From NCBI GenBank assembly GCA_963775425.1, contig CAVZJB010000013.1, forward strand, positions 160,001 to 224,000: a stretch of DNA of 64,000 nt, written 5' to 3'. Source of the stretch: an uncultured delta proteobacterium. Its GTDB lineage: Bacteria; Myxococcota; UBA727; VGSZ01. The notes below the pieces were generated by a model, which made no database searches, was not told the origin of the DNA, and saw only the letters and a list, made by a program, of their open reading frames with translations. How positions within the stretch are numbered: position 1 is the first letter of the stretch; every line of letters starts with the position of its first letter. The position numbers were made by a program, and so were the translations under genes. Below are positions 22,295-23,912 of the stretch, one piece after another.

Positions 22295-22984
22295 CTACGC
22301 GGCGAGGGTGACGACCACGCGCTCGGCGCCGCCCTCGACGACGACCGCGCCGCCGGCCCGGCTGACGCGCGTCCCCGCCGCCGGCGCCAGCGGCACGGCC
22401 GCGCCGCTTTGCAGGTCGACGACGCACAGGGACGTCGGCCCGGTGAAGGTCATCGGGTCGGGCCGCAGGCAGAGGAGAACCGCGACCATGTGGTCATCGA
22501 TTTCGACGGGGACGCACGGCGCCTGCATGCCCTCCACCGAGAGCACGCGCCGGCCCTTCACGAGGAGCGAGTAGCGCGGGGCGTCGCCGAGCACCTGCTC
22601 GCAGACCACGACGTCGCCGGAGCAAAAGCCGCCCGCCACCCAGCCGGGGCCGTCGAAGGCGTGCACCACGGTCGCGCGCTCTGTTCGCAGGTCCACGAGC
22701 ACGAGCGCCGGGTCCTTGTGCATCCCCCGCGACGCCATCACCAACGCCTGCGCGCCGCCGTCGTCGACGCCGACCACCCCGGGCGTCAGCGGGTCCTGGC
22801 GCGCGTCCACCTTCACGGTCTTTTTGCCGTCGCTGACGCTCCCCGCGGCGACGTCGAGCGTGACCGTGACCGGCGCCCCGGCGGGGCCGCCCACGCCGGC
22901 GGCGACGCCGCGCTGCGGGCGCTCCGGCTCGACCGCGCTGCGCTCGACCTTCGCCGCCTTCGGCAGCGGCCTGCCCCTAAGCAC
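22295..22984 (-). CDS. Hypothetical beta-rich protein, overlapping the upstream protease gene
   Basis: 229-aa ORF with codon bias; start overlaps the 22977 stop by 8 nt. Confidence 0.6.
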   Translation of the reverse strand: MLRGRPLPKAAKVERSAVEPERPQRGVAAGVGGPAGAPVTVTLDVAAGSVSDGKKTVKVDARQDPLTPGVVGVDDGGAQALVMASRGMHKDPALVLVDLRTERATVVHAFDGPGWVAGGFCSGDVVVCEQVLGDAPRYSLLVKGRRVLSVEGMQAPCVPVEIDDHMVAVLLCLRPDPMTFTGPTSLCVVDLQSGAAVPLAPAAGTRVSRAGGAVVVEGGAERVVVTLAA

Positions 22985-23912
22985 GCGTCCCGCCGACCGG
23001 GCTTTGGCCCCGGGGCACCACCTCGACGATCTTGGTGCCGAGGCTCTCGAAGATCCCCGCGCGGCCGTTGCCCGCGTCGGGCAGGTCGAGCTGCGACGGC
23101 TCCGGCAGCTCGTGCGGGATGCCGTGGCGCGGCTGCGCCGGGATGACGCCGTCGCCGGGGGTGCCGTAGAAGCTCGTGCTCTTCAGCGCCTTCCACGACT
23201 TGTCGAAGTCGGACGCCTTCCACACGTGGTCCTTCTGCACCGCCCAGCCGTGGCGCGCGACGAGGTAGCGCTCGCCGTCCTGGTCGAAGTAGCCCTCGAT
23301 GACGGCGTAGTGCGCGCGCTCGCCGCCGCCGTCGGTGGGGTTGCCGTTGTAGTCGACGTCGAAGCCGACGATGGCCGGGTGCCCGGCGTCGAGCACCCGG
23401 TACAGATCGTCGAGCGTCGCGTGCTCGTGGGTGCTCGCTTCATAGCCGAAGTGCTTGGCCGTCGCCGCGAGCTGCTTGGCCGTGAACATCTCTCCGAGCG
23501 CCGTGAAGCCGAGCTTCTTGGCGACGTCGAGGATGCGCTCGTTCGTGGTGGGGTCGCGCGTGTACTGCTTGCCCCTGCCCTTCAGGTCGACGTCCTGCAC
23601 GAGCGCGGTCGGGTTGTGCGGGTCCTTCTCGTTCCAGGCGTCCATCACCATGCCGAGCGCGTACAGGCCGCAGGTCGGCCCAATCTGCTCGCGCTGCGGC
23701 ACCCCCGCCTTCTTGGCGCGCGCGATCACCTCCGCCCGCGACATCGCCCGGGGCGCGGCCACCTCGGCGTTGCGCTCCATCCCGTCGGGCGCCCGCACGG
23801 TCCCGCTCCCGCCGACGTCGAGGGCCGCGGGGGACAGGCCCCCGCCGGACGACGACGGCCGGGTGCCGGTCAGGCGGGCGAGCGTGTCCCCGAGGCGCGT
23901 GATGACGGGCAT
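22977..23912 (-). CDS. Papain-fold (C39-like) cysteine protease, ACTMAP/C19orf54-like
   Basis: QIGPTCGL (Gln/Cys), GFTALGEMF, GHPAIVGFDVDYNGNP..GGERAHYAV (His), YLVARHGW. Confidence 0.8.
   Translation of the reverse strand: MPVITRLGDTLARLTGTRPSSSGGGLSPAALDVGGSGTVRAPDGMERNAEVAAPRAMSRAEVIARAKKAGVPQREQIGPTCGLYALGMVMDAWNEKDPHNPTALVQDVDLKGRGKQYTRDPTTNERILDVAKKLGFTALGEMFTAKQLAATAKHFGYEASTHEHATLDDLYRVLDAGHPAIVGFDVDYNGNPTDGGGERAHYAVIEGYFDQDGERYLVARHGWAVQKDHVWKASDFDKSWKALKSTSFYGTPGDGVIPAQPRHGIPHELPEPSQLDLPDAGNGRAGIFESLGTKIVEVVPRGQSPVGGTRA

Follow-up and report, generated by a model that had tools for sequence, protein, structure and literature searches.

In animals, ACTMAP (C19orf54) was reportedly identified as the actin maturation protease by Haahr et al. 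in Science in 2022, and to our knowledge the animal enzyme has no propeller partner. Propeller domains roof the catalytic site in prolyl oligopeptidase, acylaminoacyl peptidase and DPP-IV, and acylaminoacyl peptidase releases an N-acylated residue, like ACTMAP. The staphostatins, which act on the staphopain proteases, are small beta-barrels. ACTMAP removes one N-acetylated residue (PMC13557074, PMC13367750), and Cys132 is the catalytic cysteine of the human enzyme (PMC13367750); as late as 2023, a survey of papain-like enzymes gave ACTMAP as 'of unknown function' (PMC10318531). The protease family to which the locus described below belongs is already in Pfam. The two-gene cassette itself appears to be undescribed; the literature searches turned up no account of it or of bacterial homologues of ACTMAP.

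The window analysed here is a stretch of 64,000 nucleotides from a soil or sediment myxobacterium, and all features given below lie on its minus strand. The protease gene (P0001) occupies 22977..23912, from the ATG start and with the stop codon included, and encodes an ACTMAP-like papain-fold cysteine protease of 311 residues. The ORF listing and the translation show an intact frame at exactly the coordinates of the preliminary description, and translation confirmed the four ordered motifs that had been read from it: QIGPTCGL (with Cys81), AKKLGFTALGEMFT, GHPAIVGFDVDYNGNPTDGGGERAHYAV (with His201) and YLVARHG (with His221). There is good support both for the gene and for its start codon, since the third-position GC of the frame is 0.95 (the surrounding window has about 72% GC) and the Met-Pro start is shared by the homologues. 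Six ORFs between 17829 and 27504 were scanned against Pfam; the neighbours are ceramidase-like, Cys-rich lipoprotein and M20 peptidase genes, together with three ORFs lacking a Pfam match. For the region 22250-24000 no RNA data set was listed, and a single DNA run was found, in which 0.08 of the sampled words occur.

Judged by its sequence, the bacterial protease truly belongs to the ACTMAP-like family and is nearer to the Pfam model ACTMAP-like_C (PF21646) than to the ordinary C39 models. The profile check proposed in the preliminary description came out clearly: PF21646 scores best, with 72.7 bits on the protein (cut-off 27, E 4.4e-20), against 30.4 bits for Peptidase_C39_2 (PF13529), which is above its cut-off, and 16.8 bits for Peptidase_C39 (PF03412), which is below the cut-off of 22. 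On the six-frame translated DNA the PF21646 match spans 23289..23699 (G000:C13:183289-183699) with 67.5 bits and covers model positions 2-120 of 121. The BLASTP alignment with the 'actin maturation protease isoform X2' of the lizard Pogona vitticeps has 31% identity over 147 columns (E 3e-12) and holds the blocks Q.GP.CGL, G(F/Y)TA.GEMF and D.D.N..P....G..AH.A in register. These include the GEMF and DxDxNxxP motifs, on whose alignment with ACTMAP the earlier proposal had been staked. A profile-profile comparison (hhalign) with 12 named animal ACTMAPs gave a probability of 99.4% (E 6.1e-22), the profile of the protease's bacterial clade retrieves animal ACTMAPs with E-values of 1e-13 to 1e-19, and profile A1 retrieves the 'actin maturation protease-like' protein of Styela clava (E 4.2e-13). 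The proposed homology to ACTMAP holds: by the Pfam, BLASTP and hhalign results the likeness greatly exceeds chance and goes beyond the features of generic C39 peptidases.

The ACTMAP family has no solved structure: neither a phmmer search of the protein nor profile searches of the PDB, made with one alignment of animal sequences and one of bacterial sequences, gave a significant match. Foldseek comparison of the protease model with the PDB yielded generic papain-like matches (TM <= 0.36), the top ones being the staphopain complexes 1pxv, 1y4h and 1x9y (E 1e-4 to 7e-4); further fold matches were 3erv and, at rank 20, the ComA peptidase domain 5xe9. NCBIfam and PADLOC returned nothing useful for the protease. 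Its relatives carry the NCBI name 'C39 family peptidase', and its look-alikes in the Atlas are all bacterial or viral clusters of the C39 type, without a functional lead.

The protease is intact and probably active, as far as its conserved residues tell. Gln76 would form the oxyanion hole, with Cys81 as nucleophile and His201 as base, and His221 is the likely third residue; all four are invariant in 21/21 copies. Codons 76-81 (23670..23687) encode Q-I-G-P-T-C, from the oxyanion-hole Gln to the catalytic Cys; both residues are invariant in 22/22 and 21/21 copies and align with Q148 and C153 of animal ACTMAP. Codons 180-201 (23310..23375) encode the loop AIVGFDVDYNGNPTDGGGERAH, the D.D.N..P signature of the family, which ends in His201. 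The probable third catalytic residue follows 20 residues further on in His221-Gly222-Trp223 (23244..23252), of which Trp223, too, is invariant in the 21 copies. We liken this triplet to the Asn-Ser-Trp of papain. Animals have an invariant Q308-G309 where His221-Gly222 falls, according to a presumed alignment of this block, before which the hhalign alignment ended.

The low-complexity leader without a Sec or lipoprotein signal that had been described earlier is real. Codons 1-55 (23748..23912) specify Met-Pro and then a disordered stretch rich in Ser, Thr, Gly and Ala, ending in the conserved APDGM (residues 41-45). Residues 1-35 have a pLDDT below 50, the fraction of Ser, Thr, Gly, Ala and Pro is 0.56 in residues 1-55 versus 0.38 in the remainder, and there is no hydrophobic stretch (maximum Kyte-Doolittle 15-residue mean 0.71). 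Throughout the family the leader is variable and disordered, with MP and APDGM as its constant parts. A Gly-Gly in the leader was considered as a self-cleavage site and rejected; it is found, by eye, in only about 6/22 homologues. The C-terminal tail, codons 244-311 (22980..23183), reads FYGTPGDGVIP ... LPDAG.GRA.I..SL.TKIVEVVP.GE..VGG and is conserved, with a pLDDT of 90-98 in these blocks. By eye, the terminal ..VGG is present in about 17/22 close homologues; it is missing from the forms of family f14 that stand without a partner gene (solo copies), and in the 7 f14 solo copies compared the tail is shortened.

The partner gene, with a GTG start, lies directly downstream at 22295..22984 and encodes a protein of 229 residues, which its model suggests to be beta-propeller-like. 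The gene had been missed in the preliminary description, and this conserved partner gene alters the view of the enzyme's mode of action. Its start overlaps the protease stop by 8 nt (22977..22984, GTGCTTAG on the coding strand), an arrangement that suggests translational coupling. Overlapping or abutting frames were also found in 10/10 other partnered loci fetched. The overlap of stop and start implies a 1:1 co-production of protease and partner.

The AF2 model of the partner is all-beta, with a mean pLDDT of 69.5 and values below 50 for the first 55 residues. TolB is the best Foldseek match (E 1e-4, TMq 0.43), and BamB and clathrin propellers are also among the best. The list includes the propellers of peptidases as well: the trilobed protease 2gop at rank 23, acylaminoacyl peptidase 4hxg at rank 24 and one more at rank 43. 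The partner in the window is a shortened form, of 229 residues versus 303-345 in the homologues, with about four confident blades. One full-length homologue reaches 20.7 bits with Pfam PD40 (cut-off 20.9), the window copy has no match to that model, and PADLOC returned nothing for three partner copies.

The pairing of the two genes is conserved, but it is not universal. Among the 401 genomes of the phylum that were searched, the protease (PF21646) is patchily distributed over 32 genomes and 23 of 154 genera, and in 16 of these 32 the partner lies directly 3' of it. The partner family gave 17 strong matches (E <=1e-23) in 16 of the 401 genomes; 16 of the 17 are found directly downstream of a PF21646 match on the same strand, and the single orphan, in G011, directly follows a DJ-1/PfpI-like gene. 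The rule that a partner accompanies every protease fails, as the remaining 16 protease-bearing genomes, including all 13 of family f14, lack a partner match; one partnerless protease (G088:C55) is 75% identical to that of the window. Apart from the partner, no neighbour recurs across the 21 loci compared. The partner diverges much faster than the protease: where two proteases are 81-82% identical their partners share about 52%, and the corresponding values are 66% versus 31% and 71-73% versus 26%. Across families, protease identity is 55-82%.

Structure prediction supports a complex of the two proteins. The ipSAE was 0.86 in 3/3 runs, versus 0.00 for the best control; the ipSAE mark is reached by 58/80 solved complexes and 2/110 mismatched pairs, counts that hold only roughly as own alignments were used. 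The contacts agree in at least 76%, and the partner has a pLDDT of at least 81 in the complex. The predicted interface on the protease consists of residues 59, 62, 75-78, 186-189, 191, 194-196, 198-199, 211, 216, 223-227, 230-232, 235, 247 and 261-262, and flanks Gln76, His201 and His221. Asn189 is the residue with most low-error contacts to the partner; this position is Asn in 11/11 partnered copies versus only 2/10 solo copies, and Val225 is deleted in 7/7 solo copies of family f14. On the partner side the interface is not significantly better conserved than the rest of the protein (0.55 versus 0.51, permutation p 0.20). The models predict that the partner docks over the catalytic cleft, which would then be either blocked or merely roofed.

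We tentatively propose that the partner serves as a cap or inhibitor devoted to the protease and holds it closed in the producing cell, a reading that is possible rather than probable. According to this proposal the protease would be made in the cytoplasm with its disordered N-terminal leader, and the propeller-like partner would be co-translated from the overlapping downstream gene. One propeller face would dock over the cleft, contacting the loops that precede Cys81 and His201, the second of them the D.D.N..P loop, as well as the His221-Trp223 strand. Going by papain, we take the docked side to be the primed side, where the substrate protein lies. The partner would keep the protease shut, like staphostatin on staphopain or an immunity protein on a toxin. 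The protease would act only once freed from it, possibly after a non-Sec export, and might then, by analogy with ACTMAP, cut a small piece off the terminus of one or a few specific proteins.

That the partner inhibits rather than gates is what we infer from the whole of the evidence, which points in more than one direction. The patchy spread, the lack of any other conserved neighbour, the fast-diverging partner and the one orphan partner are features of an accessory, conflict-type cassette, the order of protease and then partner presumably matches that of staphopain-staphostatin and effector-immunity pairs, and the patterns at Asn189 and Val225 are in line with a cap. A self-toxic enzyme should need a guard, however, and in the 16/32 partnerless genomes the catalytic residues are kept in 10/10 solo copies inspected (drawn from 10 of the 16). 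Moreover, arms-race toxins are not as strongly conserved as the protease is, the locus has no linked gene for a chaperone, a secretion system or another marker of secretion, the partner's interface shows no significant excess of conservation, and the window copy of the partner is shortened, with a poorly modelled start. The main rival of the cap, in our view rather unlikely, is a gated two-subunit processing enzyme, in which the propeller would be a substrate filter or specificity subunit over Cys81 and bacterial N-termini would be trimmed in the cytoplasm, as a counterpart of the ACTMAP reaction. The predicted complex and interface suit a gate as well as a cap, as does the 1:1 co-production implied by the overlapping genes, and a housekeeping-type role would suit the strong purifying selection on the protease. 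In addition, no signal peptide is present in the protease, the peptidase propellers 2gop and 4hxg occur in the partner's Foldseek list, and ACTMAP itself removes a single N-acetylated residue (PMC13557074, PMC13367750). Yet the top fold matches of the partner are binding propellers (TolB, BamB, clathrin) and not those of peptidases, and a fast-evolving protein with about four confident blades, as in the window's family, could not close a gate. The solo copies with their retained catalytic residues indicate that the propeller is dispensable for at least some members, and a patchy presence in 32/401 genomes is odd for a housekeeping enzyme.

The preliminary description had suggested a delivered effector of a predatory myxobacterium, with the leader as secretion signal, that would cut proteins of prey or eukaryotes, perhaps including actin, at their N-termini; the downstream partner would then be its immunity protein. 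We consider this improbable. The leader is indeed disordered, rich in Ser, Thr and Gly, variable and without a Sec signal, the likeness to ACTMAP extends to the substrate-side loop, and the prediction places the partner over the cleft. The Atlas look-alikes include clusters with much Peptidase_C70 (54% of the members in the row shown), which we take to be the family of AvrRpt2 and other effector proteases. A survey of the genome for secretion machinery, as had been advised, was positive in part: two genes for FHIPEP, the T3SS-type export gate, are present, whereas the T6SS sheath gene TssC was not found in this 94.5% complete genome. FHIPEP was dropped as evidence because it is near-universal in the phylum, occurring in 349/401 genomes with or without the cassette (tally including G195). 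No secretion gene, chaperone or delivery domain adjoins the protease gene in the 21 loci compared, and the solo copies are without an immunity candidate. Nothing links the enzyme to actin either: the Actin-model search found no eukaryote-type actin in the genome and only two weak hits of 32-33 bits, of a kind that 5/14 control bacteria also give, as in E. coli and B. subtilis. Finally, the protease could be an ordinary C39-type leader peptidase that cuts the double-glycine leaders of bacteriocin or quorum peptides. The bit scores with Peptidase_C39 and, over its cut-off, Peptidase_C39_2, the NCBI name of the relatives, the ComA domain among the fold matches and the Gly-Gly near the C-terminus of many homologues can be cited in its favour. 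We regard it as very improbable nonetheless, as PF03412 stays below its cut-off and PF13529 has less than half the score of PF21646, the protease stands on its own rather than being fused to an ABC transporter, neither an ABC transporter nor a short precursor-peptide gene is among the six scanned ORFs, and only the partner recurs across the 21 loci.

At 50% identity the ACTMAP-like family falls into 799 clusters. Several of its deep clades are bacterial, and one or more of these lie outside the Myxococcota. Two unrooted trees were made, one with FastTree (87 rows) and a quick one with IQ-TREE (57 rows); the latter left out P0268 and P0106, in which the motif filter did not detect both catalytic motifs. 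In the IQ-TREE tree the animal-type clade (20 rows, 12 of them without a name) has an SH-aLRT support of 96 and the protease of the window falls outside it, not as its sister; the backbone is unresolved in both trees, with a support of 76 in that of IQ-TREE. The earlier suggestion that the protein represents the bacterial lineage from which ACTMAP derives is not borne out. A bolder scenario, which we consider improbable, is that the cassette is a hitherto unrecognised two-component machine for terminus processing, in which the D.D.N..P loop docks the protein and a separate propeller selects access; animal ACTMAP would then be a partnerless descendant, horizontally acquired by an ancestor of the animals and repurposed for actin.

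The ACTMAP family is large and mainly bacterial, and its catalytic and substrate-side loops are common to bacteria and animals. One bacterial branch carries a dedicated partner that is predicted to bind exactly those loops. This makes the system tractable for the study of substrate recognition and control in these proteases, and the origin of an animal-specific step of the cytoskeleton directly testable. If the partner is an inhibitor, it would provide a natural protein scaffold that targets an ACTMAP-type cleft; if it is a gate, it would represent a new way to build a terminus-specific protease.

Compared with known systems, the likeness to Peptidase_C39 and C39_2 is one of clan-level fold and Gln-Cys-His arrangement, with PF13529 above its cut-off; the difference lies in the sub-cut-off score of PF03412 and in scanned neighbours without an ABC transporter or peptide substrate. 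With the propeller-gated peptidases (the S9 family including acylaminoacyl peptidase, and the tricorn and trilobed proteases) the locus shares a propeller face that is predicted to cover the catalytic site, and such propellers are among the fold matches of the partner (ranks 23, 24 and 43). There, however, a single chain carries both the propeller and a serine hydrolase domain, whereas here two chains and a papain-fold cysteine protease are involved, and the confident blades of the partner in the window are too few to close a ring. The staphopain-staphostatin pairs likewise consist of a papain-fold cysteine protease followed by a same-strand gene for a cytoplasmic all-beta protein, here predicted to lie in or over the cleft. 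The pair in the window differs in that the fold match is weak (TM <= 0.36), the partner is propeller-like and not a small beta-barrel, the protease has no signal peptide and half of the family has no partner. As to ACTMAP (PF21646) itself, the bacterial proteins have an insert of about 23 residues past the Cys helix, a C-terminal tail that is unlike that of the animal enzymes and, by the presumed alignment of that block, a His in place of the invariant animal Gln at the probable third catalytic position, which lies 20 residues from His201 in bacteria versus about 53 from its counterpart in animals. Nevertheless, the cores share 31-33% identity over 122-147 columns, including the nucleophile block Q-x-G-P-x-C-G, the helix G-(F/Y)-T-x-x-G-E-M-F and the loop D-x-D-x-N-x-x-P-(5)-G-x-x-A-H-(W/Y)-A that ends in the catalytic His. 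Both are free-standing and cytoplasmic, with an unstructured N-terminal stretch ahead of the fold; in animal ACTMAP the catalytic Cys sits near residue 150 of about 300-370.

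The ACTMAP-like protease gene lies at 22977..23912 on the reverse strand and encodes 311 residues from an ATG start, with the motifs QIGPTCGL, AKKLGFTALGEMFT, GHPAIVGFDVDYNGNPTDGGGERAHYAV and YLVARHG, exactly as given in the preliminary description. The third-position GC of its frame (0.95) is the same as that of other real genes nearby, in a window of about 72% GC, and the start codon is well supported because the homologues also begin with Met-Pro. PF21646 (ACTMAP-like_C) matches the protein with 72.7 bits (E 4.4e-20, cut-off 27), a wide lead over Peptidase_C39_2, which scores 30.4 bits (cut-off 24); at 16.8 bits Peptidase_C39 stays under its cut-off of 22, and scans of the protein against NCBIfam and PADLOC gave no meaningful match. 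A word-indexed search returned 153 relatives of similar length. Among the matches listed, 120 of 120 carry PF21646, most are unnamed or called "hypothetical protein", and where the name is informative it reads "C39 family peptidase", the sources being metagenome bins of Myxococcota or "Deltaproteobacteria".

Searched in full with HMMER, a profile of 22 of these relatives reached 799 clusters (50% identity) at E <=1e-3, 202 at <=1e-10 and 50 at <=1e-30. One representative (P0255, E 4.2e-13) is annotated as "actin maturation protease-like [Styela clava]", and its own relatives are ACTMAP or "UPF0692 protein C19orf54 homolog" proteins of tunicates, reptiles, fishes, echinoderms, a spider and a mollusc. 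With ACTMAP of Pogona vitticeps the protease shares 31% identity over 147 columns (BLASTP, E 3e-12), the blocks Q.GP.CGL, G(F/Y)TA.GEMF and D.D.N..P....G..AH(Y/W)A being in register, and the bacterial profile aligns with that of 12 named animal ACTMAPs at a probability of 99.4% (hhalign, E 6.1e-22, 33% identity, 122 columns). Since both comparisons align real animal sequences, the likeness to ACTMAP given in the preliminary description is confirmed: the GEMF and DxDxNxxP motifs do align, and the protein is closer to ACTMAP than to C39 peptidases. Protein and profile searches of the PDB found no ACTMAP structure, and the AlphaFold2 model of the protease (pLDDT 88.2, pTM 0.81) matched only generic papain-like folds in Foldseek (TM <=0.36), namely staphopain, cathepsin S, a C39-like protein and the ComA peptidase domain. 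The wider ACTMAP-like family includes fused, multidomain forms: five representatives (P0131, P0134, P0137, P0142 and P0150) are 680-990 aa long, with the ACTMAP-like domain at the C-terminus, and their N-terminal parts might harbour domains for delivery or targeting.

None of 22 close homologues, and none of the 21 genomic copies compared, departs from Gln76, Cys81, His201 and His221, and the protease therefore looks catalytically competent. Gln76, Cys81 and His201 align with Q148, C153 and H255, residues that are likewise invariant among the animal ACTMAPs. The element His221-Gly-Trp223, 20 residues past His201, we take to resemble the Asn-Ser-Trp of papain; animal ACTMAPs have an invariant Gln-Gly instead of His221-Gly, a presumed equivalence beyond the reach of the hhalign alignment. 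The leader proposed earlier, lacking a Sec signal, is indeed found: residues 1-35 are predicted with pLDDT <50, Ser, Thr, Gly, Ala and Pro make up 56% of residues 1-55 (38% of the remaining protein), and no 15-residue window has a hydropathy suited to a signal peptide (maximum 0.71). Its length and sequence vary among the homologues, save for the initial Met-Pro and an APDGM motif (RPDPLAV in the Myxococcaceae/Archangiaceae forms), so that the leader is a family-wide feature. The C-terminal 68 residues are conserved (pLDDT 90-98), and the tail usually ends in ..IVEVVP.GE..VGG plus 0-4 residues.

Across 21 loci, the window's own and 20 more from genomes within the phylum, a single gene family recurs beside the protease, directly downstream and on the same strand. 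This partner gene (22295..22984, reverse strand) encodes 229 aa from a GTG start and overlaps the protease stop by 8 nt (GTGCTTAG); it is conserved and probably translationally coupled to the protease. A search for RNA data over 22250-24000 found none. When 401 genomes of the phylum were scanned with a profile of seven partner copies, 16 of them yielded strong matches (E <=1e-23), 17 in total, and 16 of these 17 matches immediately follow a PF21646 match in the same orientation. Proteins of 221-1704 aa gave weaker matches (E 1e-4 to 5e-7), apparently to propeller repeats of a generic kind. PF21646 occurs in 32 of the 401 genomes (23 of 154 genera), and the partner is present in 16 of these and absent from 16, comprising all 13 of family f14, two of f27 and one of f10; these counts describe a sample of the phylum that includes incomplete bins, and for some protease matches the contig is so short that a partner might lie beyond its end. 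Genome G088 carries a partnered copy as well as a solo one, the latter 75% identical to the window protease. Judging from the record titles, Myxococcaceae/Archangiaceae bins are the source of the solo f14 forms, and unclassified Myxococcota bins that of the partnered ones; in the species-representative collection all 41 loci are from metagenome bins, and none from cultured isolates.

The partner is modelled as an all-beta protein (pLDDT 69.5; residues 70-229 confident, 1-55 not), whose nearest PDB structures are propellers, those of TolB (E 1e-4, TMq 0.43), BamB and clathrin; the trilobed protease and acylaminoacyl peptidase propellers rank 23rd and 24th. The Pfam scan found no family beyond a borderline PD40 repeat in one full-length copy (20.7 bits, cut-off 20.9), and PADLOC gave no match. 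In the window and its family (f1) the partner has a shortened form of 229 aa, compared with 303-345 aa. Judged by pairwise identities between loci, it diverges much faster than the protease: 81-82% for the protease and about 52% for the partner between the window and genus g2, 66% and 31% for locus L028, and 71-73% and 26% for loci L024 and L029.

The sole strong partner copy away from an ACTMAP-like protease is the second copy of genome G011 (locus L038, G011:C145, 5007..6520, reverse strand). The gene immediately upstream, whose open frame overlaps that of the partner copy, was recognised by eye as DJ-1/PfpI-like. The DJ-1/PfpI family also consists of Cys-dependent hydrolases, and the propeller family may pair with more than one kind of enzyme.

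The surroundings of the cassette are not conserved elsewhere. It is flanked by a neutral/alkaline ceramidase-like gene (20627..22240, reverse; PF04734, 50 bits; signal-like N-terminus) and an M20 peptidase gene (25211..26500, reverse; PF01546, 93.8 bits, plus the M20 dimerisation domain), and thus sits among probable exported hydrolases. The upstream neighbour (23968..25152, same strand, 55 nt from the protease), not conserved beside the protease in other loci, encodes 394 aa with a lipoprotein-type start (MRHILILSSMLLAVAGC), a Cys-rich body and a long (Glu-Gly)n run arising from a (GCCCTC)n repeat at 24937-25080; its Pfam scan gave no real match (TrAA12, 18.7 bits, under cut-off). Between the convergent genes 17829-20099 (forward) and 20627-22240 (reverse) lies a GC-rich tandem array of about 470 bp (20146..20620) built of units of 21, 56-58 and 114 bp that are nested in one another (copy number 4-14; matches of 71-87% at these three periods); the hairpin-like segment GGGCGGGGGCTTGTCCCCCGC in its units suggests a REP-like intergenic element. 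Family f2, which belongs to the window's order, was sampled with 21 genomes, and neither protease nor partner was found in them. These genomes are only 0.3-3.4 Mb in size, against 8.3 Mb for the window genome, a striking range for one order, and 14 of the 21 keep the FHIPEP export gate.

When protease and partner were folded together from their respective alignments, ipSAE was 0.86 in all three runs, whereas the best of three controls scored 0.00. Of 80 solved complexes 58 come up to the mark of the protease-partner pair, against 2 of 110 mismatched pairs; these counts hold only roughly because custom alignments were used. Contacts agreed to at least 76% between runs, with a partner pLDDT of at least 81. 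The model supports, short of demonstrating, binding of the protease by its partner. On the protease the confidently predicted interface comprises residues 59, 62, 75-78, 186-189, 191, 194-196, 198-199, 211, 216, 223-227, 230-232, 235, 247 and 261-262, and so spans the loop of the oxyanion Gln76, the D.D.N..P loop leading into His201 and the strand past His221; in this model-supported complex the partner would cover the protease cleft. Contacts on the partner recur about every 22 residues (20-26, 45-47, 65-69, 88-89, 113-115, 130-136, 153-156 and 176-181), which fits loops on one propeller face. Asn189 of the protease contacts residues of several partner blades in the model; all 11 partnered copies have Asn at this position, versus 2 of the 10 solo ones, and the seven f14 solo copies all lack Val225. 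This pattern fits the predicted interface, although the copies, being related, are not independent. Conservation of the partner's interface residues is not significantly higher than that of its other residues (0.55 versus 0.51, p 0.20).

As to what such a cap would mean, we tentatively infer, ahead of the other readings, that the partner is a guard or inhibitor of the protease. Gene order agrees with this, as do an accessory, patchy distribution, the lack of other conserved neighbours, the fast evolution of the partner and the existence of an orphan copy, and the leader might serve export; however, half of the protease-bearing genomes lack the partner, the protease is strongly conserved, and no link to secretion was found. 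That same conservation would suit a gate or specificity subunit, a possible reading, little less likely than the first, for which propeller-roofed exopeptidases offer a precedent and which matches the ACTMAP reaction, the removal of one N-acetylated residue according to PMC13557074 and PMC13367750, although the partner is dispensable and, in the window, shortened.

The actin-directed effector of the preliminary description finds no specific support and seems unlikely: the genome holds no eukaryote-type actin, the T3SS-type export gates that it does have occur almost throughout the phylum, and a search of the genome for a T6SS sheath gene found none. For a protein that PF21646 matches so far above the C39 profiles, an ordinary bacteriocin-type C39 role is most improbable. 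The partner is a real, testable lead to the control of a recently discovered protease family.

The preliminary description also allowed that this might be the bacterial lineage from which ACTMAP derives, which the tree does not bear out. A quick maximum-likelihood analysis of 57 catalytic domains, unrooted and with most clusters unnamed, joins eight named animal sequences and 12 unnamed ones in one clade (SH-aLRT 96), to which the clade of the window has no specific sister relation. A second bacterial group of 13 rows has a support of 96; the nearest Atlas cluster to one of these rows comprises 76 members and comes from Verrucomicrobiota, and 99% of the 76 carry PF21646. The backbone (support 76) is unresolved, in agreement with a FastTree of 87 rows. 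In these sequences the bacterial diversity of the family appears deeper than the animal clade, which would fit a bacterial origin. PMC13367750 describes ACTMAP as resembling bacterial cysteine proteases by AlphaFold. Our literature search found no paper on bacterial ACTMAP homologues or on a protease-propeller cassette. The homology of the protease to ACTMAP is solid, yet already captured in the databases, the family being in Pfam and its bacterial members under generic names. The protease is a further member of this known family, and what appears to be new here is the cassette.
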